DNA of 64,000 nucleotides from Akkermansia muciniphila (GCA_945861415.1 CAMAUV010000003.1:64781-128780); one strand, 5' to 3'. Numbered from the stretch's first letter, positions 2-53,983 are shown. Notes: a model not told the origin generated them from the letters alone. Numbers and translations are program-made.

Positions 2-898
2 GGTAACAGCGTGGTGGGCGTGGCCTTCCAGGGTTATAGCGGCAGTGTCGCACAGAATACCGGCTACATGATTCCCACTCCGGTCATTCAGCGCTTCCTA
101 AAGGATGTGGAGGACGGAAGTTACGACCGTTATGTGGACCTGAGTATCGCTCATTTCGAACTGCTTAATCCCGCCCAGCGCAAGGCTCTGGGGCTGCCGG
201 ATGACAGCATCGGCGTGCTTGTGGCCAATGTGGATGCCGAAGGTTCCTGCGCCGGTGTGCTCAAGCACGGAGATGTAATGCTGGCGATTGATGGCCACGC
301 GATAAAAAGCAACGGCATGATCGAAATTGAAGGTGAGGAAGTGGAAATGGCCGAAGTGGTGGAGCGGAAGTTTTCCGGCGATAAACTCAAGCTCCGCTTC
401 TGGCGCGACAAGCAGCAGCAGGAGGCGGAAATTACTCTCAAAAATGTCGAGCATCACCTCATGACCGCCACTAAGTATGAGTACAGGCCAAACTATGTGA
501 CCTTTGCCGGGCTGGTCTTCCAGCCCATGGGTGCAGGGATGATGGGAGCACACAACATCACCAATCTGCGGACCCGCTACTTCTACCAGTATTTCGCCAG
601 CGACGAACTCTATAAAGTGAAGCCCCAGCCTGTGGTGCTAACGAACATCATGCCGGACAGCATCAACACCCACATCCGGGAATACACCGGTCAGATCGTG
701 GACGAGATCAACGGCGTGAAGATCAAGAAGCTCAAAGATGTGACCGAAGCGCTGGCCAAAGACCCGGAGGGAGGGTGCATCACCATCCGCCTGCTCGGCG
801 AGGGACGACCAATTGCGCTCGACAAAAAGGAGGCCGCAGCAGCGCAGCAGCGCATCCTGAAAAAGTATCTCATCGGGGAGCCTGCCTTCATCGAATAA
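2..898 (+). CDS. HtrA/Deg-family (Deg9-like) trypsin-type serine protease, C-terminal part including PDZ; 5' end lies outside the window
   Basis: The frame is open from the window edge, with the first stop at 896-898. VGVAFQG...NTGYMIPTPVIQRFLKDVEDG is the block that follows the catalytic Ser in Deg9/Do-like S1C proteases. A PDZ-like segment GVLVANVD...GDVMLAIDGHAI follows. Confidence 0.7.
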   Translation, partial: GNSVVGVAFQGYSGSVAQNTGYMIPTPVIQRFLKDVEDGSYDRYVDLSIAHFELLNPAQRKALGLPDDSIGVLVANVDAEGSCAGVLKHGDVMLAIDGHAIKSNGMIEIEGEEVEMAEVVERKFSGDKLKLRFWRDKQQQEAEITLKNVEHHLMTATKYEYRPNYVTFAGLVFQPMGAGMMGAHNITNLRTRYFYQYFASDELYKVKPQPVVLTNIMPDSINTHIREYTGQIVDEINGVKIKKLKDVTEALAKDPEGGCITIRLLGEGRPIALDKKEAAAAQQRILKKYLIGEPAFIE

Positions 899-933
899 GC
901 CCTGTGCCCGCAACTAGCTCATTTTTGACACCC

Positions 934-2421
934 ATGTTCGTCACCCGTTTCCTCATCGCCGCTGCTCTTGCCGCCGCGTTCTGTTTTACCTCTACCGCCG
1001 CAGCCCATGGCCCCTCCCCAGAGAAGTCCATGCTGCGCGTGAATATCACCAGCCAGGCTTGGAACTTTGCTCTGCCATGGCAGAAAATGAATCCCAGCAC
1101 CCGCCGCGGACTTGGTGCGCTGTTGTCCGAAAATCGCGTGCTCGTCACCGCAGAACTCGCGCAGGACGCCAGCTACCTAGAACTAGAAATCGCCTCCAGC
1201 GGCCGCAAGCTTGTGAGCAGAGTCGAAGCCGTCGACTATGAGTTGAACCTCGCCACAATCGTGCCCGTAGAAGATCCCGGTGATTTCTTCGCCGGCATGG
1301 TGCCGCTAGAAGTGGACACCTCGCTCAAGCCCAAAGCCCCCCTGACAATCTGGCAGTTTGAAGCCAACGGGGCGCCCGTCTCCTCGACGGCGGAACTTTC
1401 CCGCGCGGATCTCGCCCCTTACTTCCTCGAAGACACCAGCCTTCTGATCTTCCAGGCCAATGGCGCCGTGCAATACCGCGCCGGCACCTTTACCCTGCCC
1501 GTCGTGCATGAAGGAAAACTCGCTGGTATGCTCATCCGCTACAACAGCCGCGATCAGGTCAGTGACATCATCCCGCCATCGATCATCGACCGGTTCCTGA
1601 AGGACGTAGAGACCGCGCCCTACGATGGCGTGCCTAATTTCGGCGCCAAAACCGCGCAGACCCTTGACCCCCAGTTGCGCCGGCTACTCAAAATCGACTC
1701 ACTGGAAGGCGGTATACTTATCACCAGCGTTACACCTGGATTTTCCGCTGAGAAGTCCGGACTCAAGGAAAACGATGTAATTCTGGAAGTCGCCGGTCAC
1801 AAGATCGATAGCCGCGGTAACTACACCGATCCCGACCTAGGCCTACTTTCGGCGGGCCATCTGATCCGCAGTGCTCCGGTTGGCGGCATCGTCAAAATGA
1901 AGATCCACCGCGACGGTAAACCGGTGGACGTGGATGTCAAAATGGAGCGCCGCCCGGCGTCCGACTACCTTGTCGATCCCTACATGTTCGACCGCGGCCC
2001 GCGTTACCTGCTACTGGGAGGTCTGCTGTTTCAGGAACTTACTCAGCCGTATCTCCAACTGGGCGGCCGCGAGTGGCGCGAACGTTCGCCGTTCCGTCTG
2101 CTTTTTGCCCGTGAAAACCAGGAGGACTTCCTCCGTGAAGGTCGCCGCAAGCTCGTCTTCCTCAGCGGCGTCCTCCCCAGTCCCAGCATTCAGGGCTACG
2201 AGAGTCTGCGCAGTCTCATCGTGACCAAAGTGAACGACGTTCCCGTGAACGATATCAAAGACCTCGCCGGAGCCTTTGCGGCTCCTATCAATGGCGTGCA
2301 CAAGATCGAGTTCAGCGACTTCCCGAAACTCATCCATGTGGACGCCGCCGCCGCGGAACAGGATAACAAGGAATTCCTGCCCGCCCGCTACCGCATCAAC
2401 AAGCTCCAGCGCCTAGAGTGA
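934..2421 (+). CDS. Secreted HtrA/Deg-like paralog with PDZ; catalytic triad apparently lost
   Basis: ATG at 934 gives a Sec signal (MFVTRFLIAAALAAAFCFTSTAAA). The tracked start at 775 overlaps the upstream gene. It shares IIPPSIIDRFLKDVE and a PDZ (GGILITSV..NDVILEVAGHKI) with the upstream protease. It reads VTAELA / ELNLATI / QANGAV where the His, Asp and GNSGGP motifs are expected. Confidence 0.6.
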   Translation: MFVTRFLIAAALAAAFCFTSTAAAHGPSPEKSMLRVNITSQAWNFALPWQKMNPSTRRGLGALLSENRVLVTAELAQDASYLELEIASSGRKLVSRVEAVDYELNLATIVPVEDPGDFFAGMVPLEVDTSLKPKAPLTIWQFEANGAPVSSTAELSRADLAPYFLEDTSLLIFQANGAVQYRAGTFTLPVVHEGKLAGMLIRYNSRDQVSDIIPPSIIDRFLKDVETAPYDGVPNFGAKTAQTLDPQLRRLLKIDSLEGGILITSVTPGFSAEKSGLKENDVILEVAGHKIDSRGNYTDPDLGLLSAGHLIRSAPVGGIVKMKIHRDGKPVDVDVKMERRPASDYLVDPYMFDRGPRYLLLGGLLFQELTQPYLQLGGREWRERSPFRLLFARENQEDFLREGRRKLVFLSGVLPSPSIQGYESLRSLIVTKVNDVPVNDIKDLAGAFAAPINGVHKIEFSDFPKLIHVDAAAAEQDNKEFLPARYRINKLQRLE

Positions 2422-2501: not shown

Positions 2502-3083
2502 ATGAACTGTCCCTACTGCCAAAGTCCCGTGCACGAAGACTCCCCCGCCTGCCCCCGCTGCGGGCTAACGATGGAGAAGGCATCAGCATTTTTCGGCGCA
2601 CCACCGAGGCTCGATTCGGGAGTAAGCGACAACGCGGGCGTGCTCTCCGGCACTGACGCGCGCCGCCTGAATCGCGCCATCAAGAGCTTTGAGCGGAAGT
2701 TTCCACAGGCCGGATTTACCGCCGCCTTTATAGCTCTGCCCGGAGACACTCTTGGCCCGGCCTATACCATGTGGGTCTTCAATCGTTGCCATCCGGGCGC
2801 AGGCGAAATATCCGGCAGCGGCAACCGCCACGTGCTTCTGCTGGTCGACGTATCCGGCGGCGGCGCGTGGATGACACTGGGCTACGGCCTTGAGCCCTTC
2901 GTCGGCGCCCGCCATCTCCAGCGCTGCCTTGATGCCGCCTATCTGCACTTCGCCACCGGACGCTGGGCGGAGGGTGCCCATGCGGCAATCGCTGAACTGA
3001 ATGGGCTGCTTCGTGAAATTCACACTTCCCTGCCCCGCATCTTCGGACTGACCACGGAATCGAGCCCATCCGCCACCAGATAA
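2502..3083 (+). CDS. Zinc-ribbon plus TPM (TLP18.3/Psb32/MOLO-1-like) domain protein
   Basis: N-terminal CPYC...CPRC zinc ribbon. It is followed by VSDNAGVLSGTDARRLNRAIKSFERKFPQAGF, which resembles the start of TPM domains. Confidence 0.55.
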   Translation: MNCPYCQSPVHEDSPACPRCGLTMEKASAFFGAPPRLDSGVSDNAGVLSGTDARRLNRAIKSFERKFPQAGFTAAFIALPGDTLGPAYTMWVFNRCHPGAGEISGSGNRHVLLLVDVSGGGAWMTLGYGLEPFVGARHLQRCLDAAYLHFATGRWAEGAHAAIAELNGLLREIHTSLPRIFGLTTESSPSATR

Positions 3084-3578: not shown

Positions 3579-3698
3579 CGCCGCAAAGCGCAGCGGGCCT
3601 GAATTGAGAGAGCCCCAAATTTTTGTTTAGCGAGTGTAAAGGTGATTGCTCACCACCCCAGAAACGGCTTTGATGGCGCCAACACCTTATATCATCTT

Positions 3699-4790
3699 AT
3701 GCACCGAGACATTCTTGATTACCTCTCTGCCACGCGCGAACATGGCGGCTCTGACCTTCACATGACAGTGGGCGCGCCGCCGGCGGCCCGTATCGACGGC
3801 AAGTTAGTGCCGCTGGAAGACTACGACGTGGAACCGCAACGCTGCCGGGAACTGATCATGGCTATCCTCACGGACACGCAGCGCGCCAAACTGGAGAAGG
3901 ACTGGGAGCTGGATTTCGCGCTCAATGTGGAAAATGTGGGCAGGTTCCGAGGAAACGCCCACATTGTGCGGGGCAACGTGGAGGCCGCCTTCCGCTATAT
4001 TCCGTCGGAAGCCCCGGAACTGGAGAGCCTCGGGCACTCAGAAACAGTGGCGAATTTCTGCAAAGCCACGCATGGCCTGCTGCTGCTGACGGGGGTGACC
4101 GGCACGGGCAAAAGCACGACGCTGGCCGCCATGACGCGCCGCATTCTCGAAACACGCTCGAACATCGTGGTGACCGTCGAGGACCCCATCGAATACGCGT
4201 TCGAGCACAAATACGGGCTCATTAAACAGCGTCAGATCGGGCACGATACCCACAGTTTCCCCGCGGCCATCCGTGCAGCCCTGCGGCAGGATGTGGATGT
4301 GCTTATCATTTCCGAAATGCGGGATCAGGACAGCATCGCCGCGGCGCTTACGGCTGCGGAGACCGGACACCTTGTTATTTCCACGCTGCATACGCGCAGC
4401 TGTGTGGGAGCGCTGGACCGCATCGTGGACGTGTTCTCCTCAAACCAACAGGCGCAAATCGTCACGCAGATGGCGGGGGCTCTCATCGGGGTCGTGTCCC
4501 AGAGGCTTTTCCCGCGCGCGGACGCACCGGGCCGGGTAATGGCGACCGAGGTGATGGTGGTGAACGATGGCATCCGGGCCGCGATCCACGATCACCGGTT
4601 TGAGCAGGTCTACAGTCTGATGCAGGTGGGAGCGTCCTCCGGCATGCACACCTTTGACGACAGCCTGCTGCACCTTTGCTGTAACGGCTACATGACGCTG
4701 GATGAGGCCATGCTCAACGCTCGCAATCCCCCAACACTTCAGTCCGAGTTTCAAGAGTACCTGCGAAAACAGGCCGCACGCAGCAAGTGA
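3699..4790 (+). CDS. pilT: Type IV pilus retraction ATPase PilT
   Basis: Walker A GVTGTGKSTTL, Asp box DVLIISEMRD, His box TGHLVISTLHT, and N-terminal GGSDLHMTVGAPPAARIDGKL. ATG 3699 is preferred over the tracked GTG 3642, but this is not certain. Confidence 0.85.
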   Translation: MHRDILDYLSATREHGGSDLHMTVGAPPAARIDGKLVPLEDYDVEPQRCRELIMAILTDTQRAKLEKDWELDFALNVENVGRFRGNAHIVRGNVEAAFRYIPSEAPELESLGHSETVANFCKATHGLLLLTGVTGTGKSTTLAAMTRRILETRSNIVVTVEDPIEYAFEHKYGLIKQRQIGHDTHSFPAAIRAALRQDVDVLIISEMRDQDSIAAALTAAETGHLVISTLHTRSCVGALDRIVDVFSSNQQAQIVTQMAGALIGVVSQRLFPRADAPGRVMATEVMVVNDGIRAAIHDHRFEQVYSLMQVGASSGMHTFDDSLLHLCCNGYMTLDEAMLNARNPPTLQSEFQEYLRKQAARSK

Positions 4791-10058: not shown

Positions 10059-11105
10059 TCAAGGCGACGGCTGACCGCACCTCATCTTCCCCCACTCCTG
10101 ACAATACGGAAATACTCCTCCATATCCCCGAAGTTGTTCTCCCATGTCGTATACATGGCGCCCTCCATCCCCCGGAAGACCTTCCCATGACCCGGCAAAA
10201 TCCCCGCAGGCGAGGCAGTAATGGTCGCGGGCATTGTGGTGAGGGGTGAACATATCACTCCAGACGTAAATTCTCGCCGCCGGATCGATCTCCCGCAGGA
10301 TGTTCACACACGTGCGGGCATTTTCGGCGAGCGGTTCCCCTGCGCTAAGGCCCCAAGCGCGACAGGAAGCACAGTGATTCCAGACACGCACCTCGTCATG
10401 GCTCATCATGGAGCCGGAAGGTTCCCCCAATGCGTTCACGCGTTTCGCCTGATCCCGCAACTGTAACACGGCACGAGGTTCGGAAGGGCAGATCACCGCC
10501 TGATCGTCGTGGACAGTCGCCGCACGGTAGTAGCTGGCGAGCAGCCGCGTGTCGTCCGGAAGCTTTTTCTCCAAAAGGGGCGGTTCATGCCAAACGATGA
10601 GCACACCGTTGTAGGGTTTTATGCCCATGAGAGGGTCGCTGAGCTTTGCAAAACCCCTCCCTTCTACCAGCGAATTGCCGGCCGCAGTCACAAGCAATGG
10701 TGCACCCTCCCGGCGGACCAGATTCAGAAACGCCACCTCTCCGAGCTTAGCGTCATCCCACCAGAGTTCGCCTGTCTTTCCGTCCCAGCATTCCAGATAA
10801 AGCGTCGCCTCTGCGCAGCCCTGACTGTTGAAGACCACGTGATAATCCGTCCAGCCCTGAGTCTTCGCCACTTTGAGGTAATCTGAGCAAAGCCAGCGCC
10901 CGTTGCCATCCATGAACTTCGGGTCGGGCGTTCCGGAAAACTCTTTCGTCTTCACGCGAATTGAAAGGTGATACTGCCGCCATGGCTGGGCCTTCACTCT
11001 CTGAGTGATGCGGGCGTTTTGACCGCTGGGGTCTTTGACATACGCGACACCATCTTTGGAAATCACGTTGTCGTCCTTCCAGCCCCACAGGGCCAGATCG
11101 CTCAT
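10059..11105 (-). CDS. CBM-like plus TIM-barrel glycosidase-like protein; both termini doubtful
   Basis: The N-terminal part has a CBM4/9-like pattern (RITQRVKAQPWRQYHLSIRVK...GWTDYHVVF...LYLECWDGKTGELWWDDAKLGE). Later MMSHDEVRVWNHCASC and YVWSDMFTPHHNA resemble hexosaminidase-like TIM barrels. There is no signal peptide. The C-terminal 30 codons look out of frame (see finding). Confidence 0.45.
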   Translation of the reverse strand: MSDLALWGWKDDNVISKDGVAYVKDPSGQNARITQRVKAQPWRQYHLSIRVKTKEFSGTPDPKFMDGNGRWLCSDYLKVAKTQGWTDYHVVFNSQGCAEATLYLECWDGKTGELWWDDAKLGEVAFLNLVRREGAPLLVTAAGNSLVEGRGFAKLSDPLMGIKPYNGVLIVWHEPPLLEKKLPDDTRLLASYYRAATVHDDQAVICPSEPRAVLQLRDQAKRVNALGEPSGSMMSHDEVRVWNHCASCRAWGLSAGEPLAENARTCVNILREIDPAARIYVWSDMFTPHHNARDHYCLACGDFAGSWEGLPGDGGRHVYDMGEQLRGYGGVFPYCQEWGKMRCGQPSP

Positions 11106-11252
11106 GTCGCCGCCTTCCAACGCAGGCTCAACGGCGGTGTTCGCGCGAGCAATGAGCGCCCGGAGTGTTCCTCTGTCGACCGCGATACTAAGGCGCGGTC
11201 CACCAACTTACTGCTTCCCTCGCATCTGAGACTGCCTTAAGGTGATACTAAC

Positions 11253-13845: not shown

Positions 13846-13934
13846 GTAAAGTTGTTAGTAATGCACTATGGGCGTATGCTCGGTTACATTATGCAACCAA
13901 GCAGTTCTAATATACGCTAATTTATAAAAGTAAT

Positions 13935-13964
13935 GACCGCACTTGAGGCTACCCAAGTGCGGTC
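13935..13964 (-). terminator. Rho-independent terminator candidate after the PEP-CTERM gene
   Basis: Perfect 11-bp inverted repeat GACCGCACTTG-(8 nt)-CAAGTGCGGTC, 27 nt past the stop at 13992. On the minus strand it is followed by ATTACTTTTATAAA. Confidence 0.55.
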
Positions 13965-13991
13965 AAAAAGGTGTCAAAATTCGAGAACCGA

Positions 13992-14618
13992 CTAACGGCG
14001 GCGGCGCGCGAGACCAAGAACGCCCATCAATGCCAATACGGCACTTGTGGGTTCAGGAATTCCGTACAATTTAAGATAATCGTTTCCTGTCGCATTATCA
14101 ATTTCAGTGCCGACGATCGTATTGATTAATGCGGGGCTACCTGCAATAGCATTGACACTGCTTGCAGCAGTCACATCAGCAGGGAAGAGCCAGTTAGTTC
14201 CACTAGCGGTCGTGCCTGTGTAGAAAGCGTATTCTGTAGCATTATCAAGATTAGGAGTATTTCCGATGAGGACGTAAATCTGACGAGTATTGAAATCATC
14301 TACAGTTGTGCCCGCGGCTCCGGCGGTAGCAGTCATTGCTGTGCCGTTAGTAATCTTAGCTCCAGCGGCATCACCATTTGCGGTAGTTCTTGCAAACTCC
14401 TTGAAGCCAGACCTGATTTCTGCAAAAGTGGCAGTGCTAGAGGGCAGCTGGCCAGAGAATGAACCGACAGCATATTGAACAGTAGTTGTAATCAAACTTC
14501 CTGAAAGACTCTGGAGGCGAACCCCAGCAGCGAATCCAGTGCCAGTAACGATTGAAGCACCTTGTGCAGAGCAAAGCATCGCTGCAAAAGCAGCTGCGAT
14601 AGTTAGTTTTTTATGCAT
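13992..14618 (-). CDS. PEP-CTERM sorting-signal protein, Thr/Gly/Ala-rich
   Basis: Sec signal MHKKLTIAAAFAAMLCSAQG. The C-terminus is GIPEPTSAVLALMGVLGLARRRR (PEP motif, hydrophobic helix, Arg cluster). Confidence 0.8.
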   Translation of the reverse strand: MHKKLTIAAAFAAMLCSAQGASIVTGTGFAAGVRLQSLSGSLITTTVQYAVGSFSGQLPSSTATFAEIRSGFKEFARTTANGDAAGAKITNGTAMTATAGAAGTTVDDFNTRQIYVLIGNTPNLDNATEYAFYTGTTASGTNWLFPADVTAASSVNAIAGSPALINTIVGTEIDNATGNDYLKLYGIPEPTSAVLALMGVLGLARRRR

Positions 14619-14656: not shown

Positions 14657-15694
14657 TTATGGAGCAATTGTGACAGCCGGCACCGTAAGGATCGCTGCAG
14701 TTGGCGATTTACGGCTGAGGATCACGCCTTCATACTCAGGGACGTTTTTGTCGTCTTGCGAATTAGTTCCGGGGTCAAAAAAGCCCGAGGCGCCCGTAGC
14801 CGCAGCGTCGGCGGCAAAGAATGTGAGGAGAGCTTGGGAACCTCCGGAGGGAGCGAGGAGGAACTGAATTTCGTCAGCGTCAGCAGTGCTAGTCCCCTGC
14901 AATACTCCAGTTGTGGTGACTCCAGTGTTGAACCCGGAAGCCCCGAGAGTGACGCCAGTGGCGCGCATAGGGGCAATCCAGTTGGTTCCAGTGAAGACGT
15001 CAATTTGCGTCTTCGTAGTTTTGACGTGACCAACTGATATCATGGAGGCACCAGACGTCAACTTACGAACAACTTGCACTGCAGTGCCGGGGACGATAGC
15101 CACATTGTCGGCAGAGCCACCACCCGGATCAAACCAACCGTCAGTGGGAGCTCCATCGGCACCGGTTGCATAGAAATAGCTACGCACAGCCTGCGGGGTA
15201 GAGCCTGAATCAAGAATCTGAACTTCGTCCGCATTGTCGGTACCCGTACCCGTATCGAGGCCAGCGGCATTTGCCCCCATCAACCCGAGGATAGTCATGT
15301 GTTTGCGGACAATAAATGATGTGCCAGCACCGGCACTGGCAGGCAAAGCATCTTTCGTTGTGATAGTGCCAGCGGTTGAACTCTGAATAGTGCTCCACCA
15401 ACCTTCATTAGGTCCGGACTTAATTTCTAAATAACTTGATTCATCAAGTCCCGCAGTTGCGCCAGTGGCTTCTACGCTAGCGGTGCCGCCAGCATTGACA
15501 GTAACTGCAGCGAAGTCAGTTTTGTTGACCAAAGTCGCGGCGACAAGAGTAACCGAGGGAATGGTAGCAGAGACCGCAGCATTGATCGGATGAGTGATGT
15601 AGCCTACGGGATCAGTGACAGCGGTTTGGGCATAGGAACCCGAGACTGCCGCGAGCGTGGTCGCACTAATGATGAGGGAGAGTTTGGTTTTCAT
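14657..15694 (-). CDS. Secreted Thr/Gly/Ala-rich protein built from repeated modules
   Basis: Sec signal MKTKLSLIISATTLAAVSGSYA. It has internal repeats (ADEVQILDS..RSYFYATGADGAPTDGWFDPGG / ADEIQFLLA..LTFFAADAAATGASGFFDPGT). There is no PEP-CTERM and no prepilin signal. Confidence 0.7.
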   Translation of the reverse strand: MKTKLSLIISATTLAAVSGSYAQTAVTDPVGYITHPINAAVSATIPSVTLVAATLVNKTDFAAVTVNAGGTASVEATGATAGLDESSYLEIKSGPNEGWWSTIQSSTAGTITTKDALPASAGAGTSFIVRKHMTILGLMGANAAGLDTGTGTDNADEVQILDSGSTPQAVRSYFYATGADGAPTDGWFDPGGGSADNVAIVPGTAVQVVRKLTSGASMISVGHVKTTKTQIDVFTGTNWIAPMRATGVTLGASGFNTGVTTTGVLQGTSTADADEIQFLLAPSGGSQALLTFFAADAAATGASGFFDPGTNSQDDKNVPEYEGVILSRKSPTAAILTVPAVTIAP

Positions 15695-15950
15695 TGGTTT
15701 GGTGGGTGGAATTTGGCGGAATATAGTGCGATATTAGAAGAAAATTGGCGGATTGTAAAGGATTTCGTGCGGAATTCCCGCATTTTTTTGCGAAGGGTTC
15801 AATCCTTGCCGTGATTTACATCGCAGTAAACTTACCGTGAGCAAGTTACACGAACCGTTTCGGGGAAAGGAAAGGGTAAATCCTGTAAAAGTTTAGTTCA
15901 AATTCGCAATTCTGAATGATGGAGGGGTAGGCCCTCATTAGCTTTCGAGG

Positions 15951-18626
15951 CTACTTGCGCCCCTTATTTTTCCGCGGTGTTGCGCTTTGGACCTCTACGG
16001 GAAGGCCGGCATCAGGAGTGTCGAAGGGGACATCTTTCTCATAAGTGGGGAGGACGACGTCTTTGGTGATGCGTTCGGGCTTGGCAAATTCGATGGCTTC
16101 GGATCCGACAACGGTGCGCTGAAGCTCACTGACATTCACATCCACCATGTCATCCGCAGTCTCGATAATGCGGGCCTGCAGGAGGACAACGAGTTCTCGG
16201 CGGCGCTTATCGCGGTTGTTAGAGCCGGTGAGATATTTGAGCACCGGAACCTTGCTCAGGAAGGGTAGTCCGGACTGGGATTTGGAATCGGAGTCCGAGA
16301 TTAATCCGCCAAGGACAAGGATTGCTCCATTGGGCACAGTGATACGAGTATTGAGTTCTTGGGTGGCAATGTTAGGAATGGCATTTCCATTGATGACGGT
16401 TTCGCCGTTTATAGTGTCGTTAAGCTGATCAACCGTCAGGGTGATTTCGTTCTTGGAGTTGATGAGGGGCGTCACACCCAAAGACAGAACAACGTTTTCG
16501 TATTCGATGCTGCTGTTGAGCGACTGAGTGCCGCCGGTCACGATAGTGGACTGCTGGTTGCTGGGGATCGGTACGCGTTCACCGCTGGAGATGGTGCCGA
16601 GTTCGTTGTTAGCGATGGTGATGTGGGGCTTGGCGAGAAGCTTGGAATTGCTTGATGTTTCCAGCGCCCTAACATACGCATTGAACAGGTCTCCTGCGGC
16701 GGCATAGAGGTTGAAACCGCTACCGGTAGCAGGGAAAGCGGCGAGGGTGGAGAGGGTGGAGGGGTCGATGAATGCGCCATTGGGGCCGGAGCGGAAGAAT
16801 CCGGCGGCATTGACGCTCTCTCCTCCGATGTCTAGGGTCTCCACTTTGCGCAGGAAGTCGATGGAGGTGTCCATGTTGTCGCCGATGGACATCTGAGCAA
16901 TGACCGCATTGATGTGCACTTGGAAAGGCCGCCGATCCATTTCCTTAACGAGGTCGCTGACTCGCTGAATGGAATCAGGAGGGCCGGAGACGATGAGGCT
17001 GTTGGTGCGGGGGTCGGAGATGAGGAGCGTTTTGCCGACTGTCTGGGCACGGGGAGGGTCGGTAGTGCCACCCCCGGCTCCACCGGCGCTGCCCACGCTC
17101 TGGCGCGTTGAGCGGCCGCCACTGCTACCACCTCTAGCGCTGCTGGAGGAACTGCCGCGGTTGGCGATGCTGCTGCGGGCATTACCGCCAGCCGTTCCGC
17201 TGCCAAAGTCTCCGGCTTCACTGCGGCCACCGGTGGTCCGGGCACTGCCGCCGCCACTGCTGCTGGCACCGCCTCCTGAACCTGCCTGACCGGCACCGGT
17301 GGCTTCGAGGGAGGTCACGGCGAGGTCAAAAAATTCGGCTACGGGGATGTAGCGCAACTGCTGGGTGAGCAGATTCTTTACACGGCTGGGCTCATCGAAT
17401 TCGCGGATGAGTTTCCTAAGGTATTCGACGTGCTCCTCAGGGCCGTTAAGGAAAACACGGTTGGTGCGGGGATCGGCTTTTACGATCATGTTGCTGCCAT
17501 CCGGCATTTGTCCGCTGGCGGCACCGGGAGCGGCTTGCGCAACGACAGGCTGGGCTACAGCTCCTGGCTGCAGATTGACGGCAGCGGCGGCGGGGGATAT
17601 GCTGCGGAATCCGGTCGAGCCGCTTCTGCCTTTACCTTGCGCCTGGGCTTGCAGGATCTGGTCAAGAATGGACTGCACATCCTCAGCGGAAGCGCGCTCA
17701 AGCTCCACCCACTGATGCACCAACTTGACAGGCGGGAGGTCCATCTTTTCCACCGCTCTAACGAGGGTGCGGACATTAGAGACACTCTCGTGAACAAAAA
17801 GGGAGTTGGAGGAAGGAACAGCAATGAGCTTCGTCCACTGGTGGTTGGGGATGGCTTGGGCCAAGACTTGGGAGGCCTCGTCCACAGGAAGATGCTTCAA
17901 GGTCAGCAGGTAGCTAACGGGCTGCTCCTCTTCGGGTAAGTCTGCCAGTTTCGTGTAGATGATCCCGCCGTCCTTGGGCGGCTCAGTTAGCGGGGAGTTA
18001 CCCTGCCCCTGCAGCATGAGCGCCTTGTCTATATTTTTGCTGTAGGGCTGAATGACCACGCCCTGGAGCAGAAGACCGGCTTTAAGGAACTCGATCGCTT
18101 CCGCCGGCGCCAAAGGAGACTGTGGATTGGAAGCGAAAGTTAACTGGGCCTGCAGGTTGGGCCCGCGGAGCACGTGGCGGCCGGAGATTTCCTCATACTT
18201 CCCGATCACTTCTTCGATAGTGGCGTCCTTGAAAGCGATTTCCCACATCCCGTTTTCCTCCGTGGCCTCAGCAGTGCCCGTGGCAGCGCCGGGAGCGGGA
18301 GCAAGGCCGGGGCCGTTGCGAGCCCGTCCGCCCGGGGGCGAAGTCCGTCCCGGTATCGTCACCGGGGGCCGGGGAGTAGTGCCGGGGGCTAGGCCGGGAG
18401 TCGCAGGGGCGGGGGTAGCCGCCGGCGGGGCGGGAGCGGCGGCTGTGGGCGGCACCACGGTTTGCTTGGGAGCGGTAACTGCAGGGGCTCCGACTGACTG
18501 GCCGGTGGCATCTTGGGCTAACGGTTTGCCGCGGAGAGATGGCGAAAGGTTTGCGGAGCCCTGACCGGGAGCGGTCATCGGGAAGGCGAGCAGCAGTAGC
18601 GGAAGAAGGCGAGTGGGGCGTGACAT
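15951..18626 (-). CDS. Secretin (GspD/PilQ family) with long low-complexity inserts
   Basis: C-terminal secretin core: LLAKPHITIANNELGTISSGERVPIP...NTRITVPNGAILVLGGLISDSDSKSQSGLPFLSKVPVLKYL...RRRELVVLLQARII. It has N-domains of the ..DPRTN.L.V.G.. type and a signal peptide. Confidence 0.9.
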   Translation of the reverse strand: MSRPTRLLPLLLLAFPMTAPGQGSANLSPSLRGKPLAQDATGQSVGAPAVTAPKQTVVPPTAAAPAPPAATPAPATPGLAPGTTPRPPVTIPGRTSPPGGRARNGPGLAPAPGAATGTAEATEENGMWEIAFKDATIEEVIGKYEEISGRHVLRGPNLQAQLTFASNPQSPLAPAEAIEFLKAGLLLQGVVIQPYSKNIDKALMLQGQGNSPLTEPPKDGGIIYTKLADLPEEEQPVSYLLTLKHLPVDEASQVLAQAIPNHQWTKLIAVPSSNSLFVHESVSNVRTLVRAVEKMDLPPVKLVHQWVELERASAEDVQSILDQILQAQAQGKGRSGSTGFRSISPAAAAVNLQPGAVAQPVVAQAAPGAASGQMPDGSNMIVKADPRTNRVFLNGPEEHVEYLRKLIREFDEPSRVKNLLTQQLRYIPVAEFFDLAVTSLEATGAGQAGSGGGASSSGGGSARTTGGRSEAGDFGSGTAGGNARSSIANRGSSSSSARGGSSGGRSTRQSVGSAGGAGGGTTDPPRAQTVGKTLLISDPRTNSLIVSGPPDSIQRVSDLVKEMDRRPFQVHINAVIAQMSIGDNMDTSIDFLRKVETLDIGGESVNAAGFFRSGPNGAFIDPSTLSTLAAFPATGSGFNLYAAAGDLFNAYVRALETSSNSKLLAKPHITIANNELGTISSGERVPIPSNQQSTIVTGGTQSLNSSIEYENVVLSLGVTPLINSKNEITLTVDQLNDTINGETVINGNAIPNIATQELNTRITVPNGAILVLGGLISDSDSKSQSGLPFLSKVPVLKYLTGSNNRDKRRRELVVLLQARIIETADDMVDVNVSELQRTVVGSEAIEFAKPERITKDVVLPTYEKDVPFDTPDAGLPVEVQSATPRKNKGRK

Positions 18627-18706
18627 GATAAGTCGGATGGGGCAAAGTGGAGTGATTTCAGTGAAGGAACCGGTCAGGAAGTTGAGCGGAACCCGGAAGA
18701 CCTAAG

Positions 18707-19606
18707 CTATGGCTGAGTGGGCAGGACGACACGGCGGCGGCCTGTGCCGTTGGAGGATTTTCCGTCTCTGCTGCTACCGGGATTTGTTTGCGGAGGGGGC
18801 GGGACGTTGGGTTGCGTCACACTGGGCTGCCCCGTCATGTTATTGATACCCTGCTGGACATTGAGCGGATTGACCCCGCCGGGATTGGTCGCGTTGTTAT
18901 TGCCCGTATTCGCCGGAGTCCTGCCAGCAATTCCGTTCGCCTCTGCCCATTTCTGATAGGCGCCGTTGTTATTGCCCGTATTCTCCGGAGTCCTGCCAGG
19001 GATGAATGGGGCTGGAGGAGCAGCGTTGTTGGGAGCATTACCGCCCGGGCGCGGCATCACCGGCCGGGGGACCATGGTGCCGTTCGGGCCGGGCACCATT
19101 TGCACTCCTCCGCCACCACCGCCGGCAGAACCGCCTTTAGCATTTTTGAGGGTATCCTCTTCAAACTTGATAGGCTTTTGCTGGCCGTCCTTTTCCAGAA
19201 TCACTTCCGAGGAGGCGAGGGATTTTCCCTTTTTGAGCCCGATGATGCGGAATCCGCTGTCGTCGCTCTTTCTCATGGGAGACGCATCGCCCCAGACGGT
19301 GACGCGCTGCTTTTCCTTGCCAACAAAAAGGTAAACAGACATCATCTTGCCGCCACCGGCATACCCCGCGAGGGAGACGGCCTCAAAAGGATCTGCCGCA
19401 GCGGCCACTTCCTCTTTGGGAGCTTCGAACTCGAACGGGCTCTTTTTCCGCATGTGCGCGTAACGGGAAATGTCATACTGCTTTGGCAAATAGGGGGTGT
19501 AGCCATTTTCCGTGACGGCAGCAGGCGCGTTTTCATTGGCGAAAACGGGGGCAGCTATGCTGAGCAAGGCAACGTAGGGCAGAAGGGGAGTCAGTTTCGT
19601 TTTCAT
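18707..19606 (-). CDS. PilP / GspC-HR-like periplasmic protein with Gly/Pro/Asn-rich tail
   Basis: Signal peptide, then a beta-rich block (VSLAGYAGGGKMMSVYLFVGKEKQRVTVWGD...FRIIGLKKGKSLASSEVILEKDGQQKPIKF) like PilP/GspC HR domains. Its position is immediately upstream of the secretin. The start overlaps the upstream stop (ATGA). Confidence 0.5.
   Translation of the reverse strand: MKTKLTPLLPYVALLSIAAPVFANENAPAAVTENGYTPYLPKQYDISRYAHMRKKSPFEFEAPKEEVAAAADPFEAVSLAGYAGGGKMMSVYLFVGKEKQRVTVWGDASPMRKSDDSGFRIIGLKKGKSLASSEVILEKDGQQKPIKFEEDTLKNAKGGSAGGGGGGVQMVPGPNGTMVPRPVMPRPGGNAPNNAAPPAPFIPGRTPENTGNNNGAYQKWAEANGIAGRTPANTGNNNATNPGGVNPLNVQQGINNMTGQPSVTQPNVPPPPQTNPGSSRDGKSSNGTGRRRVVLPTQP
18893..18999. 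repeat. 35-bp direct repeat (1 mismatch), copies 72 bp apart, inside the pilP-like tail
   Basis: GTTGTTATTGCCCGTATTC(G/T)CCGGAGTCCTGCCAG occurs at 18893-18927 and 18965-18999. It encodes GRTPANTGNNN and GRTPENTGNNN. Confidence 0.85.
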
Positions 19607-20346
19607 GGAGTGGGCGGGGTGACGGGCGCCGCTTCAGCAGGAGTCGGGTCCGGCAAAGCGGGAGGCGCCAAGGGCACGACAGTAGCGTCAGCGGCTTTGT
19701 TTTCAGGAGCCGAAGTATCAGCCGACGGTTTGGAAGTTTGGACACCCGGGGCTTCGGGTTGTTCAACTCCTTCGGGAGTTTCTTCATTCGTGAAAACGGA
19801 GCCCTCTGGTTTCGCCCACCACTGCTCCAATTCCACAGTGACCTGCACACTTTGCTCGGCGTCATTGTTCTCGTTCTTGCGGGGCACGAGAGTAATGCGG
19901 GGCACAAAACGAAAATCCTTTGGCGACTGGAGACGATAGATAAAATCCATCACCCCAGTCCATTCCCCCTCCACAGTGGACTGGTAACGGCTCTTGTCGA
20001 AATGCTCGCCATCCCTGGGCGGCAGACGCTGGAATTTAGTAACATCCACACCAGTACCGTTGATCAACTGCCCCTGCACGAGATCGCCCAAGTGGGTCTC
20101 CCGCTGACCTTCGTCGGCATAAGTCCTTATGTTCCCGGCAATGAACTCCTCCACCTTCAGGGCCTCGCCGGCCTTGCCGCTCCACGCCTTGAGCTGCTGG
20201 ACACGACCATTCAGCCGACCCTTCTCCCGGTCCAGCTTCCCCTGGGCTCCCATGAGCCATGTGAAGCCGATGAAGTTGGCAAAAACAAAGGTGCCGATGC
20301 CGACAAAGGTCAGCATGCGTCTCTCGCGGTCATTGAGCTGGGGCAT
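19603..20346 (-). CDS. PilO / GspM-like bitopic protein
   Basis: ATG 20346 gives MPQLNDRERRMLTFVGIGTFVFANFIGFTWLMG (short cytoplasmic tail plus TM). This is followed by a coiled coil and an alpha/beta domain, then a Pro-rich tail. It overlaps the upstream gene by 17 nt. Confidence 0.5.
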   Translation of the reverse strand: MPQLNDRERRMLTFVGIGTFVFANFIGFTWLMGAQGKLDREKGRLNGRVQQLKAWSGKAGEALKVEEFIAGNIRTYADEGQRETHLGDLVQGQLINGTGVDVTKFQRLPPRDGEHFDKSRYQSTVEGEWTGVMDFIYRLQSPKDFRFVPRITLVPRKNENNDAEQSVQVTVELEQWWAKPEGSVFTNEETPEGVEQPEAPGVQTSKPSADTSAPENKAADATVVPLAPPALPDPTPAEAAPVTPPTP

Positions 20347-21607
20347 TGTCGTCAGGTTTGATGTTTCCGGTAATCTGGAATGGCACAACCGCCCCGCGGG
20401 CCGGCTCAACCTTGTAATCCCATTTAAAGTCCTTGAGTGCGTTGTTGCCCTTAATGCGGGTGTTGTAGAGAATGGCAGGACGGTCACTGGCGTTGGCCTC
20501 CCCCTTTATGGTGATGCCTGCCGTTTCCGCGCCATTGTCGTCCACCTTGCGCTCGATCTCTACATTCGTGACCCGCACGCCGATGCTCTGCTGGTAGAGC
20601 GGGGTCAAGGCCTGGTTGAGCAGCTCGATGGGGTAGTGGTCGGAGTTGGTCACGCCTTCCAGCACCTGTTTCTTGATAAGCGATTTCTCCACAGAACCGA
20701 ATTGCGCTTCCAATTGGTTTGCCTGGCCGCGCAGGTCGTCCACGTCACTTTTGGCCATGAAATAGCTGGCGGCGGAGAATGCCGGCACCGCGAGATATAG
20801 CAGTAGGCCGAGAAGAATGTAGTTCCGGATGCGCTTCATGCGCGCTGACCGGATCTTGGCCATGGCCACCGATACCGGCTCGATGCTGCTCACCTCCTGC
20901 GGCACGGCCGGAGCGGGTCGGCGCTCGCTACGTACACGGGCGCCAAACACCCGCTGCAATTCCTCCACCGCGCCGGGCTCAACCGCCTCGGTCCAGAGGA
21001 CAATACCCTTGATCTCCTCCACAATGCCCTGGGTGAAGAGCGGCATGAGCAGTTGCTCTAGTTCCTGCGCCGTTTCCATTCGCAGCATATCGCTCGTAAG
21101 CGCGTGGTAATAGACCGGCTGGTCCCCGCGGGTAATGCAAAAAACGAGGCGGCCCAACTCCCGCCAGATGACGAGGTGGTCATCTGGCAAATAATAGAGG
21201 TAGGGCGAAATCTCAAAGCGCTGCGGAGCCTCCTTAGGCAGCACGTCGGCCACCTGCGCGTTGAGCACGGAGGCAAGGATCAGCGTATTGGTCTCGTTGC
21301 GTTCCACTGTGCGGTAGTCCACCAAGCGGCCCACCGGGGTGTCCGGCTTCAGCCCCTGTTTTTCGAGCTGAAAATCCACAATATCGGGCAGTAGGTCGAC
21401 ATCGCCGGTAGCTGCCCGGACAGGCACGGCGAAAGCGGCGCTTATAGGATAGCCGAACACGCCGGCAGTCTTAAATGCGGCTGCGCCTTCATCCACCGGC
21501 AGGGTCTGCGCGATCTGCCAGCCCTCGGCGCTGTATTTCCACAACTCCCACGACTGTTCTCCCGGCAGACAAATGCCTGCCTCGGTATTGGCACTGGGTG
21601 ACTTCAT
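20330..21607 (-). CDS. GspL-like / fused PilM-PilN-like assembly protein
   Basis: About 265-aa cytoplasmic part, one TM (IRNYILLGLLLYLAVPAFSAASYF), then a coiled coil plus a PilN-like periplasmic domain (..ITIKGEANASDRPAILYNTRIKG..PFQITG). It starts directly after the gspK-like stop. Confidence 0.5.
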   Translation of the reverse strand: MKSPSANTEAGICLPGEQSWELWKYSAEGWQIAQTLPVDEGAAAFKTAGVFGYPISAAFAVPVRAATGDVDLLPDIVDFQLEKQGLKPDTPVGRLVDYRTVERNETNTLILASVLNAQVADVLPKEAPQRFEISPYLYYLPDDHLVIWRELGRLVFCITRGDQPVYYHALTSDMLRMETAQELEQLLMPLFTQGIVEEIKGIVLWTEAVEPGAVEELQRVFGARVRSERRPAPAVPQEVSSIEPVSVAMAKIRSARMKRIRNYILLGLLLYLAVPAFSAASYFMAKSDVDDLRGQANQLEAQFGSVEKSLIKKQVLEGVTNSDHYPIELLNQALTPLYQQSIGVRVTNVEIERKVDDNGAETAGITIKGEANASDRPAILYNTRIKGNNALKDFKWDYKVEPARGAVVPFQITGNIKPDDNAPAQ

Positions 21608-22660
21608 TTATTCAAACAAGGGGACTTCTTCACGAGTAAGTATTTGGGGAGTTCCGTTACGATTGCGCACGATCAAAACCACGCGTTTCCGGTATTCGCC
21701 GACCGTGGCCACGCTCTCGATGTGCACGGTCTGGTCATTGACGCCAAACACGGCGCTGACCATTGAGTCCGCGGGATCGAGGCCCAGCCCCTCAAGGGCT
21801 GCATTCATTTCTTCGGCACTTTGAAGCTTGATATCGTCCTCTGTTTCCTCAATGCCGTCAGAGCCCCATCGATCGGTGACCAGTTCCTGTGCCTCCACCA
21901 GCAAGTCTGGATAGTCCCGGGCAGGATCGGAGGTCCCTTTCACGGCCAAAGCCGCCGACGCGATAACCTTGGCCTCCGCTTCGTTCAGGTCGATCTTGCC
22001 GGCGCTGTAGATGGTGAAGAAATCCCGCCAGTCGGGAAGCAGCGCAGTGATTTCATCAAAACCGGGAACCAGCGTCATTTCGTCCAGATCATAAAACGGC
22101 CGGTTGAAGGGATATGGAGTATTTTCGCCGTACATGTCCACATAGTCATTCTTCTCCAGTCCATGGGTGAGATTGGAGCTGTCCGCATCCACCCAGTCGA
22201 CCAGACAGTCGAAGAGGACGGCCGCCTGATCATTGCTCATCCCCCAGATAGTGAACCACTTGGTTAGAAAGGTGCGGCTGGCTTCACCCTGCTGGAGCAG
22301 AAAGTTGATGTTCTGGCGCCCGCCCTCACCTTTGATCTTTACGGAGACCATTTCGCCATCCTCCAACTTTTGCGTCAACGGCAGCAACACGGCATCCGCC
22401 ACCCCGGGGCCTTGATTCAGCAGGCCAAAGTCGAATTCCTTCACCACCGGATTCATCGCGATGTTGATCCCCATTTCCGCCAGTTGCCGGGCGCGAAAGG
22501 CCTGCTTTTGGGCCATGGTCATGGTCAGGTCCTGACTGACGACCACATTGGCACTGTGAATGAGCATCATCATCATGCCAATGAGCCACATGACCAGCAG
22601 CAGCGACGAACCGCGCCGGGCATGGCGGCAGCGGAGGTCGGAGAGCGGGAGGAGTTTCAT
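21608..22660 (-). CDS. GspK-like minor pseudopilin
   Basis: RRGSSLLLVMWLIGMMMMLI pseudopilin-type N-terminal helix, central LVDWVDADS..GLEKNDY, and C-terminal LDEMTLVPGF...KIDLNEAEAKVI as in the T2SS protein K family. ATG 22660 is preferred over tracked 22711. Confidence 0.7.
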   Translation of the reverse strand: MKLLPLSDLRCRHARRGSSLLLVMWLIGMMMMLIHSANVVVSQDLTMTMAQKQAFRARQLAEMGINIAMNPVVKEFDFGLLNQGPGVADAVLLPLTQKLEDGEMVSVKIKGEGGRQNINFLLQQGEASRTFLTKWFTIWGMSNDQAAVLFDCLVDWVDADSSNLTHGLEKNDYVDMYGENTPYPFNRPFYDLDEMTLVPGFDEITALLPDWRDFFTIYSAGKIDLNEAEAKVIASAALAVKGTSDPARDYPDLLVEAQELVTDRWGSDGIEETEDDIKLQSAEEMNAALEGLGLDPADSMVSAVFGVNDQTVHIESVATVGEYRKRVVLIVRNRNGTPQILTREEVPLFE

Positions 22661-45413: not shown

Positions 45414-46496
45414 TCACCGACGATGAAAAATCTCTGGCTGCTGCAAGCGCCAGCGTTCCACGGCGGAAACGAGGGTGGAATCCCGCAGCGTGCTGTCATG
45501 GATTGCGTTGGCCCATGCGGCGGCGCTGGCAGCGTCGTTGCGGATCGCAGGTGAGTCTGTCAGCGCCACAATGGCGGTGTCGCGGACAACCTCGCTAGCC
45601 AAGGTGTTCACCCACTGCGAGGCCGCAGCGGGATCGGCTAGCATCCACCACAGGACAACGCCTTCGACAGCGGCAAGGGCGGAATCGCCGGAAAGCGACC
45701 GCGCCCATGCGGCGGCCTGCTGCGGACTGGATTGCGCCCACTGCGCGGCAACGGCTCCGGCAGCAGAGCTGTGGTCTTCGCCGGTGAGGCTGTTCACCCA
45801 TGCCGTCGCCGTCGACGGATCTTCTATGGCAAGTGAGATGGCGAGAGCGGGCACGGCCTCTGCGCGCAGAGAATCGTCTTCCAGATTTTGCACCCATACG
45901 GCGGCGGCGGCAGGATTGTCCGCGGCCCATGCGGCGGTCACTACGCGTGCGGCTAGTGCAGCGGCGGCAGGGTCGAGCCCAAACCCGCCGGTTTCCTCCT
46001 CAAGATGAGCGGCAGCAGTCTGTGGATCGCGCGCGGCCCATGCGCTCATCACGGTGGCGGCGGAAAGGGTGCGTTCAGAACCCGGGAGCGTGTCTATGTA
46101 AGTAAGAGCCGTCTGCGGATCGAGTTCCCCATACCGTGCGAGAAAAATCTGCAGCGCCAGTCCGCCATCGGCCCCGGGTTGCAGATCGAGCGTTCTCAGT
46201 GCCGCCAGCGTGCCGCGGATATCCAGAGTGGCAGCGTGGTCGAGCAGTGCCGCGATTCTGCCTGCTGGCCCAGTGCGGGGAACTTCGGTGGGCGCACCAG
46301 CAGCCTCTATTTTGCCGGGCGCGCCCGCCATTTTCTCCACCGCCATGCCTCTGGTGACAGCGGCGGAAGCCGTAGTGCGGACGGCGGGGGAGATTGTCGG
46401 CACTGCAGGGCGCAGTGTCCATCCGAGGAGGAATGCCGCTGCGGGAATAGCGGCGCTGAGGATTACACAAAAGTGTTGGGGAAGAGAGAGGGGCAT
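45414..46496 (-). CDS. Signal-anchored repeat protein (six W..(D/S)P..AA.W units)
   Basis: N-terminal hydrophobic segment. Repeats: AWAARDPQTAAAHL, AWAADNPAAAAVWV, IEDPSTATAWV, QWAQSSPQQAAAWA, WWMLADPAAASQWV and RNDAASAAAWA. Confidence 0.6.
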   Translation of the reverse strand: MPLSLPQHFCVILSAAIPAAAFLLGWTLRPAVPTISPAVRTTASAAVTRGMAVEKMAGAPGKIEAAGAPTEVPRTGPAGRIAALLDHAATLDIRGTLAALRTLDLQPGADGGLALQIFLARYGELDPQTALTYIDTLPGSERTLSAATVMSAWAARDPQTAAAHLEEETGGFGLDPAAAALAARVVTAAWAADNPAAAAVWVQNLEDDSLRAEAVPALAISLAIEDPSTATAWVNSLTGEDHSSAAGAVAAQWAQSSPQQAAAWARSLSGDSALAAVEGVVLWWMLADPAAASQWVNTLASEVVRDTAIVALTDSPAIRNDAASAAAWANAIHDSTLRDSTLVSAVERWRLQQPEIFHRR

Positions 46497-52885: not shown

Positions 52886-53983
52886 ATGCAAAACACCTCC
52901 ATGAAAAAACTGCTCTTCACTCTTCTCGCCGCCGCCATCGGCAGTTCCACCTTCGCTGATACCATTACATTGAAGGACGGCACCGTGTGGGAAGGCACCA
53001 TCCTAGAGGAAACCCCCACGCAGGTGATCATCGAAGTCCAGTTCTCCGCCACCATAAAATCCAAAGAAGAGGTCAAGGTATCCGAAATCAAGGAAATAAA
53101 GAGGCTGCCGGTTGATGAAAAGGAAGCCGCCGCATTGATGGCGAAGTTGAAGGTTACGGAAGACGGCATGACCGCGGCCAACTACGAATTAGCAATCAAA
53201 CTGAGTATCCAGCCATGGCTGGACAAGTATAAGACCAGCAAGAAGCGCGCAGATGTGGAGGCGCTGCTGAAGCTTTACACAGAGGAACTGGCCAAAGTGA
53301 AAGCCGGCGGCACCAAGGTGCGCGGCTCATGGATCACAGCAGATGAACTGAAGTGGGACGAATACAACATCGCTGCCCGCCGCCTGCGTGTGCAAATGGA
53401 GGCCCAACTCAAGAAGCGCGAGTATGTGGCAATGCACAACGCCTTCGCCAAAATGGATGCAAAGTATTCCGCCGCTGTGGATTACGTACCTTCACTGGAA
53501 CTGATGAAAAAAAGCATGGCCGCAGTTGAGGGCACCATCGCCCGAGCCGTTGAGGAGCAAAAAGGCTACGACGCTGAGCGCAAACGCCTGCTGGGCAGCC
53601 AGACTCCGGAAAAGAAGAAGGAACTGGAGGACAAGATCAAAGCCGAACAGTTGGAATTCCGCAAGAAAGTCGCACAGGAGAAGAAAGAAAAGATCCGTCT
53701 CACCAGCTACGATAAGCACGACCTGAAGAGCGTTCAGGATGCGCTCTCTCAGGCCAAAAAAGAGACGGAATACCTCAACAAAATCGACACCAAAGGTCAG
53801 GCCGAGGCAGCCAAAAAATATCAGGAAGCCCTGCGTCACATCTATGAAAAGCAGTGGCTATCCGCCAAGTCTAAGCTGGAGTATGCGATAAAGGTTTTCG
53901 CTAAAGATCCCGCCGTGAAAAAATCGCTCGACGATGCTACCCGACAGGCTGCTGCCGCCGGCAACAAGACTGGAGCCAAATAA
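52886..53983 (+). CDS. Secreted Lys/Glu-rich helical protein
   Basis: Signal MKKLLFTLLAAAIGSSTFA (ATG 52886 or 52901). N-terminal DTITLKDGTVWEGTILEETPTQVIIEV, then long K/E-rich helical sequence. No family recognised. Confidence 0.7.
   Translation: MQNTSMKKLLFTLLAAAIGSSTFADTITLKDGTVWEGTILEETPTQVIIEVQFSATIKSKEEVKVSEIKEIKRLPVDEKEAAALMAKLKVTEDGMTAANYELAIKLSIQPWLDKYKTSKKRADVEALLKLYTEELAKVKAGGTKVRGSWITADELKWDEYNIAARRLRVQMEAQLKKREYVAMHNAFAKMDAKYSAAVDYVPSLELMKKSMAAVEGTIARAVEEQKGYDAERKRLLGSQTPEKKKELEDKIKAEQLEFRKKVAQEKKEKIRLTSYDKHDLKSVQDALSQAKKETEYLNKIDTKGQAEAAKKYQEALRHIYEKQWLSAKSKLEYAIKVFAKDPAVKKSLDDATRQAAAAGNKTGAK

Follow-up and report, generated by a model that had tools for sequence, protein, structure and literature searches.

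The five minus-strand genes at positions 15951..22660 of the stretch of DNA analysed here (64,000 nt, CAMAUV010000003.1:64781-128780; hereafter the window) very probably encode the distal half of an ordinary type II secretion system (T2SS), with the gene order gspK-gspL-gspM-(gspC/pilP-like)-gspD and a pseudopilin block that has become detached. The host of the locus is an uncultured Verrucomicrobiales bacterium; the window corresponds to part of contig CANKPW010000003.1 (assembly GCA_947484705.1), and identical copies of the locus were found in at least eight independent samples. The assignment to a T2SS was made on the basis of the type of secretin, the fused architecture of the GspL-type protein, the presence of GspK and, above all, the synteny in related genomes. 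An initial annotation of the sequence had left the choice between a T2SS, a type IV pilus (T4P) and a hybrid of the two undecided; the same four lines of evidence now point to a T2SS, and a new or hybrid pilus machine is not supported by the evidence.

The locus consists of g1 (gspK-like, 22660..21608, 350 aa), g2 (gspL-type, 21607..20330, 425 aa), g3 (gspM-like, 20346..19603, 247 aa), g4 (GspC/PilP-like, 19606..18707, 299 aa) and g5 (gspD-type secretin, 18626..15951, 891 aa), all given as open reading frames (ORFs) on the minus strand. The junctions were read from the sequence: the TAA stop of g1 directly adjoins the ATG of g2, 17 nt are common to g2 and g3, an ATGA overlap joins g3 to g4, and a gap of 80 nt separates g4 from g5. 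Some public gene calls place the start of g3 10 codons further downstream; since 20 homologues conserve the residues ahead of this later Met, among them an invariant E8, the longer ORF with the 17-nt overlap is to be preferred. None of the five ORFs is shortened when compared with about 28 homologous loci of other Verrucomicrobiales genomes, and the same gene order recurs in these loci, so the arrangement is not due to chance. The end of recG (Pfam domains RecG_wedge, DEAD, Helicase_C and RecG_dom3_C) lies 197 nt upstream of g1; a scan with the sigma-70 consensus, which is uninformative for this phylum, yielded no promoter-like site in the gap between recG and gspK. The initial annotation had already described five minus-strand genes with these junctions and recG as the upstream neighbour, and had called the outer two genes GspK-like and secretin; the sequence reading and the Pfam matches (T2SSK_1st for g1, Secretin and Secretin_N for g5) agree with it on all these points.

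Of the two genes with recognizable domains, g1 matched Pfam T2SSK_1st with 37.7 bits (cut-off 26.2) and aligned with NCBIfam T2SS_GspK over positions 2-306/307 (E 1.1e-18), with a score below the equivalog cut-off. Its N-terminus is of the prepilin type (RRG/SSLLLV, the slash marking the putative cleavage site) and has no Glu at +5; a single N-terminal hydrophobic segment covers aa 16-42. By its Pfam and NCBIfam matches and the missing Glu5, g1 is the GspK minor pseudopilin expected of a T2SS, and gspK directly follows gspJ in 11-12 related loci. The secretin g5 is composed of a signal peptide, a P/A-rich stretch, an N0 domain, three Secretin_N domains and a C-terminal secretin domain (Pfam Secretin, E 2.4e-41; Secretin_N, three copies, E 5.5e-33; N0, weak), that is, the N0-N1-N2-N3 plus secretin organization of GspD. 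The GspD model TIGR02517 aligned over 2-598/600 with 270 bits (equivalog cut-off 351), whereas the PilQ model matched the C-terminal part only (163 bits) and the MshL, SctC and HofQ models likewise covered just that part of the protein. An AMIN domain was not reported in g5 by the Pfam and NCBIfam scans. The P/A-rich stretch before N0 extends over aa 33-126, and a G/S-rich insert of about 90 residues (aa 439-528) is present among the periplasmic N domains; the length of g5 differs between public gene calls (891 vs 903 aa).

The product of g2 had no match in Pfam, NCBIfam or the sequences of the PDB, the last also when the family profile was used, and each of the 66 relatives retrieved from the database is an unnamed or 'hypothetical' protein from a Verrucomicrobiales metagenome bin. 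A confident AlphaFold2 model built on 37 of the 66 relatives (predicted local distance difference test score, pLDDT, 85.7) comprises an N-terminal alpha/beta domain (aa 1-240), a long membrane helix, a coiled coil and a C-terminal ferredoxin-like domain; the single transmembrane helix between the domains has its hydrophobic core at aa 262-284. For the N-terminal domain, a Foldseek search of the PDB with the model returned PilM (5eou, 3jc8), cyto-EpsL (1yf5/1w97), PulL (5tkw) and GspL in its complex with GspE (4pht), these four at E 1e-5 to 2e-7, as well as FtsA, the E values ranging overall from 2e-7 to 1e-4. The C-terminal domain matched the periplasmic domain of XcpY(GspL) (5n7l/6ghu, TM-score on the target 0.73-0.76) and also PilO. 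As modelled, g2 is a bitopic protein with an actin-like and a periplasmic ferredoxin-like domain, which is the architecture of GspL and equivalent to a fusion of PilM and PilN. By analogy with these structures, its cytoplasmic part is a predicted GspE-binding domain.

To survey the layouts of the locus in relatives, one genome per GTDB species was scanned with the g2 profile; this gave 32 loci (numbered with the prefix L), all from Verrucomicrobiales or Akkermansiaceae-labelled metagenome-assembled genomes (MAGs), which were read by tblastn and ORF analysis. Three arrangements were distinguished. In layout A (L003, L004, L006, L015-L018, L020, L021, L023 and L030, and in part L019) the genes form the string gspG-H-I-J-K-L-M-g4-D. 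In layout B (the window, L007, L008, L010-L014 and L029) K-L-M-g4-D is found with no pseudopilin genes within 4.8-10 kb upstream. In layout C, which is that of the distant relatives L031-L034 (g2 identity 23-28%), the order is (D-)E-F-G-H-I-J-K-L-M(-g4-like), the secretin gene being located upstream in L032, and the g2 counterpart follows gspK in each of these canonical clusters. The E protein of layout C scored 526 bits as GspE vs 477 as PilB, the F protein 300 bits as GspF vs 204 as PilC, and GspG was the best NCBIfam match of G in the distant clusters. The GspJ family carries the Pfam domains T2SSJ and N_methyl, and in one representative layout A locus the best matches of G, H, I and J were GspG (1.3e-18), GspH, GspI and GspJ. 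A neighbour-joining tree of g2 points to layout A as the ancestral state and to at least two or three origins of the cut between gspJ and gspK. The MAGs of L007, L014, L022 and L024 are titled 'Akkermansia muciniphila' or 'uncultured Akkermansia sp.', and their g2 clusters with that of Verrucomicrobiales MAGs; on environmental MAGs such titles are probably placeholders, which could mislead a synteny comparison with true Akkermansia.

The distant clusters also provide the connection for the two remaining proteins. g3 is a bitopic inner-membrane protein with a transmembrane segment at aa 11-32 and a P/A-rich C-terminal tail. It matched Pfam T2SSM_b with 20.6 bits (E 4e-4, cut-off 21.7), a model that weakly matches only 3 of 23 members of the g3 family; its best, weak NCBIfam match was GspM_XpsM (E 8e-5), and the family profile gave no significant match to PDB sequences. 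The same profile aligned over its full length with the gene after gspL in L033 (hhalign 97.5%) and L032 (96.5%). Topology and position fit GspM, the small bitopic partner of GspL. For g4, the family profile aligned with the ORF after gspM in L032 (hhalign 97.5%, E 6e-12). Both families are homologous to post-gspL genes of distant clusters, and g3 and g4 are therefore the genes conserved at the M and C positions of a canonical T2SS cluster. The position of g4 before the secretin and its homology to the L032 gene are consistent with GspC.

In g4, a signal peptide or anchor (aa 5-23, with a cleavage-like site VFA/NE) is followed by the motif RYxxMxKKSPFEFE, a beta domain (aa ~70-150), a disordered P/Q/G/N-rich region with a low-complexity stretch of ~130 residues, and the C-terminal sequence RRRVVLPT. 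Throughout the family the N-terminal motif reads RYxxLxxKSPFEFE and the C-terminal RRRVVLPT is invariant (codons near 18710..18733); the family alignment shows no lipobox Cys. There was no match for g4 in Pfam, NCBIfam or PDB sequences. The AlphaFold2 model is confident at aa 70-150 only, and because two thirds of it are disordered all Foldseek matches were non-significant (E >= 0.13); the top 32 include the homology region of GspC (GspC-HR, 3oss_C, prob 0.69; 2lnv) and PilP (2lc4/2y4y). A search with the family profile gave 825 representative clusters; the distant members are 180-250 aa long and retain a C-terminal R-R-V-x-x-P, and ten of them scanned against Pfam showed no significant match. 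By analogy, the N-terminal motif may act like the N-terminus of PilP, which binds PilN/O. The initial annotation, arguing from topology, had likened the three middle genes to pilMN, pilO and pilP; this was right in kind, as GspL corresponds to PilM plus PilN, GspM to PilO and GspC to PilP.

The detached half of the system was traced with GspJ of L020, the closest relative that bears G-J, as the query; seven matches were looked up. In three sibling MAGs the K-L-M-g4-D locus and a G-H-I-J block were found on separate contigs: GCA_964523105.1 (CAZFZN; L007 and block L037, followed by obg), GCA_027486335.1 (JAIXPK; L009 and block L041, followed by PIN/HTH genes) and GCA_964605435.1 (CAZSDE; L014 and block L054, followed by unrelated genes and not by gspK). 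Pseudopilin genes are absent from the 8.9 kb (L007) and 4.8 kb (L014) upstream of gspK; in L009 only 488 nt are available upstream of gspK, and there the split is taken from the G-H-I-J block ending beside unrelated genes. Further detached blocks are L040, L053 and L056. The genes adjoining the detached blocks differ (obg, PIN/HTH, SASA and others), which suggests repeated, independent rearrangements at the J/K boundary. None of the seven GspJ matches came from the samples of the window (ERZ27280287, ERR5863101, SRR15198247) or from GCA_947484705.1.

The GspG, GspH, GspI and GspJ pseudopilins of a T2SS are not encoded within the window. Among the larger ORFs of the 64 kb, Pfam scans picked up neither GspE/PilB nor GspF/PilC, nor a prepilin peptidase or a pilin; searching all six frames for the prepilin motif G-F-[ST]-L-x-E gave no pilin gene, and tblastn with the GspE/F/G/H/I/J proteins of the relatives found no counterpart. 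A further 7.5 kb of the contig to the left contains housekeeping genes only and none of the missing partners; GspE, GspF and the peptidase are likewise missing from the window, and the 10-kb flanks in close relatives do not encode them either. The one ATPase gene of interest (3642..4790, plus strand) is a genuine PilT/PilU (TIGR01420, 397.7 bits vs a cut-off of 319.1), 11 kb from the operon on the opposite strand with unrelated housekeeping genes in between. The initial annotation had noted both this orphan pilT and the lack of ATPase, platform, peptidase and pilin genes, and on both counts it stands. Its description of a compact operon lacking partners does not: the locus is the downstream half of a T2SS, of which G-H-I-J are located on other contigs in three sibling MAGs. 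It had also named, as an outcome that would remove the novelty, that the locus is half of a canonical cluster split elsewhere in the genome; this is essentially the case in the siblings, whereas the search did not find the second half in the genome to which the window belongs.

With component roles taken from established T2SS biology, the system would operate as follows. The ancestral arrangement in the clade would have been the single string G-H-I-J-K-L-M-C-D, which a rearrangement would have cut between gspJ and gspK in the lineage of the window and in at least two others; in the window, the cut would have placed recG upstream of gspK. The GspG-H-I-J pseudopilins, the GspE ATPase, the GspF platform protein and the prepilin peptidase would then be encoded elsewhere in the genome. 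GspK, together with I and J, would cap the tip of the pseudopilus. The cytoplasmic actin-like domain of GspL would be placed to dock the GspE ATPase hexamer, and GspL would pair with GspM in the inner membrane and the periplasm. The divergent GspC/PilP-like g4 would link this platform to the N0 ring of the secretin through its small beta domain, and GspD would form the outer-membrane channel through which the growing pseudopilus pushes folded periplasmic proteins.

Several observations weigh against this assignment. The GspM call of g3 combines sub-threshold matches to hidden Markov models (HMMs) with position, and the assignment of g4 to GspC/PilP combines non-significant fold matches with the motif pattern and position. 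The N-terminus of g4 looks like a cleavable signal peptide and not like the membrane anchor of GspC, and the protein is without a PDZ or coiled-coil domain. The NCBIfam scores of GspD and GspK are below the curated equivalog cut-offs. In addition, gspE, gspF and the peptidase gene were not found beside the pseudopilin genes in any close relative, and none of the missing genes was traced in the genome of the window itself; five additional GspJ candidates, when looked up, proved to come from other samples.

As the GspL/M/C/D and PilMN/O/P/Q proteins are homologous, fold alone cannot tell a T2SS from a T4P, and the genes might instead specify a T4P alignment subcomplex (PilM/N-PilO-PilP-PilQ), or a true T2SS/T4P hybrid, that builds a retractile pilus with the nearby PilT and distant T4P genes. 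PilM and PilO are among the fold matches of g2, PilP is among the weak matches of g4, and a bona fide pilT lies 11 kb away. We nevertheless consider this very unlikely: the first gene encodes GspK, which is a T2SS-specific tip pseudopilin, the gspG-H-I-J genes upstream in relatives best match the GspG/H/I/J models, and in distant relatives the scores of the E and F proteins favour GspE/GspF over PilB/PilC. With GspD the secretin aligns from end to end, with PilQ in its C-terminal domain only, and the PilM and PilN parts are fused, as in GspL. Separate PilM and PilN proteins, a PilP lipoprotein, an AMIN-containing PilQ and the absence of GspK, by which a type IVa pilus (T4aP) alignment complex is recognized, were not found here. 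A functional link to pilT was considered and rejected, as the gene is on the other strand beyond unrelated housekeeping genes and no PilT/GspE-type ATPase gene was found in any related K-L-M-C-D locus. That the locus is a decaying or orphaned remnant, no longer functional after the loss of the pseudopilin, ATPase and platform genes, would be in keeping with the absence of partner genes from the 64 kb and the extra 7.5 kb, and with the window's own G-H-I-J, E and F not having been located. None of the five ORFs, however, is broken or shortened; they lie close together, and many of their residues are invariant in about 28 loci of 40-85% identity; identical copies occur in at least eight independent samples, and three sibling MAGs keep G-H-I-J on separate contigs. 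Decay is thus a highly improbable explanation.

Least credible of all, and extremely improbable, is orthology with the pili-like cluster Amuc_1098-1102 of Akkermansia muciniphila, in which case the genes would produce the same surface structure. The general layout is similar, with a secretin gene preceded by an FtsA/PilM-like gene and genes for small signal-peptide proteins (PMC5332112), and some of the MAGs that bear the operon are labelled Akkermansia in their records; these are unverified labels attached to bins from lakes and soil. The NCBIfam model Amuc_1098_fam (NF042912) gave 34.8 bits on g5 vs a cut-off of 750, over the last ~85 residues and model positions 713-799 only. Amuc_1098 is described as having an N-terminal TPR/BAM-like domain (PMC4960237), whereas g5 has the GspD-type N0-N3 domains and no TPR reported by Pfam. 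The NCBIfam scan returned no Amuc-family model for g1-g4 at E<=1, and the Akkermansia cluster as described is without GspK. The likeness to this region that the initial annotation had brought up is a generic secretin/alignment-complex resemblance. Membership of a Verru_Chthon cassette was likewise rejected, there being only a 10.9-bit N-terminal match.

Downstream of the secretin, two minus-strand genes encode exported proteins. The first, d1 (14657..15694), specifies a secreted protein of 345 aa and occupies the post-secretin position in at least 12 related loci. The family alignment shows an invariant N-terminus after the signal peptide (AQT/AVTDPVGYIT), and the protein contains two internal repeats of ~110 aa (ADEVxxL...GW[YF]D...PG); there was no match in Pfam, NCBIfam or the PDB, also with the family profile against PDB sequences. 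Judged by synteny, d1 may be a cargo or accessory protein of the system. The consensus scan placed a promoter-like site ahead of d1 (15759..15731, minus strand). The second gene, d2 (13992..14618), starts 38 nt downstream of d1 and encodes a PEP-CTERM (exosortase-sorted) surface protein of 208 aa (Pfam PEP-CTERM, 21.4 bits, above 20.7); it is syntenic in L015, L017, L018, L021 and L023, and its association with the secretion system is uncertain. A terminator-like hairpin at 13934..13965 (minus strand, 14-bp stem followed by a T-rich tail, consensus scan) probably marks where the transcription unit or units end. Elsewhere in the window, two tandem HtrA-like PDZ proteases, a TPM-domain protein, a small TPR protein and the isolated pilT are grouped in the region of 11..2421, 2502..3083 and 3642..4790 (all plus strand), with no other pilus gene near pilT within the 64 kb. 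The ORFs at 45414..46496 (minus), 52886..53983 (plus) and 10059..11120 (minus), of 350-365 aa, gave no Pfam match at E<=0.001.

A more speculative proposal, to which we assign a modest chance well short of even, is that g4 represents an undescribed class of soluble periplasmic connector between secretin and platform, widespread in Verrucomicrobia (825 representative clusters) and not membrane-anchored like GspC, and that the downstream genes encode dedicated cargo or a surface structure. In that event the linear motif RYxxLWxxSPF of g4 would bind GspL/M in the way PilP binds PilN/O, its HR-like beta domain would bind the secretin, and RRRVVLP on the disordered tether would make a third contact. 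T2SS export would moreover be tied to exosortase sorting via the post-secretin genes, for which the link between T2SS and rhombosortase (GlyGly-CTERM) offers an analogy.

The products of g2-g4 and their relatives are recorded as 'hypothetical protein' without a Pfam domain across dozens of Verrucomicrobiales genomes, so automated secretion-system detectors will call such a T2SS incomplete or generic. Once they are identified as GspL, GspM and a GspC/PilP-like connector, the list of T2SS parts is complete for a clade that is known for polysaccharide degradation, where secreted enzymes matter. The recurrent cut at the J/K boundary shows that multi-locus T2SS are common in this clade, and genes 'missing' from a window should therefore not be read as evidence of a reduced machine. 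For the study of T2SS diversity outside Proteobacteria, the unusual g4 connector and the surface proteins conserved downstream offer modest leads.

Among known systems, the Xps T2SS of Xanthomonas is organized as xpsE-F-G-H-I-J-K-L-M-N-D. The locus in the window shares with it the order K-L-M-(C-equivalent)-D, in which the secretin gene is last and is directly preceded by that of the GspC equivalent; GspK, the architecture of GspL and the domain organization of GspD are alike, and GspM_XpsM is the best NCBIfam match of g3. It differs in that the string is cut between J and K, that E-F is not next to G in close relatives, and that L, M and the C-equivalent have diverged too far for curated HMMs to recognize them. 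Classical GspC has a membrane anchor and a PDZ or coiled-coil domain, whereas g4 has a signal-peptide-like N-terminus, a disordered P/Q/G-rich region and the RRRVVLPT terminus. With the T4aP PilMNOPQ proteins of P. aeruginosa and M. xanthus the locus has in common a PilM-like N-terminal domain and PilO/PilN-like ferredoxin folds in the C-terminal domain of g2, a weakly PilP-like beta domain in g4 and an operon that ends in a secretin gene; in the window, by contrast, PilM and PilN are fused, GspK comes first, GspG-J are upstream in relatives, the secretin is of the GspD type and g4 is without a lipobox Cys.

The Amuc_1098-1102 cluster is described as encoding three hypothetical proteins besides an FtsA-like protein and a PilQ whose N-terminus is TPR/BAM-like (PMC4960237, PMC5332112). 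Like the present locus, it is a verrucomicrobial cluster in which a secretin is accompanied by an actin-like protein (FtsA/PilM-type) and by small exported proteins. It has a secretin of another family, with the TPR N-terminus in Amuc_1098, and has been interpreted as T4P-like, whereas the present locus is assigned to a T2SS. The chlamydial T2SS appear without recognizable minor pilins and GspL/M and have hence been classed as generic (Denise et al. 2019, PMC6668835). They resemble the system described here as T2SS of the Planctomycetes-Verrucomicrobia-Chlamydiae (PVC) superphylum whose assembly-platform components escape standard profiles; in the verrucomicrobial system, however, K, L, M and the C-like protein are recognizable by structure and synteny, and G-J are recognizable in relatives.

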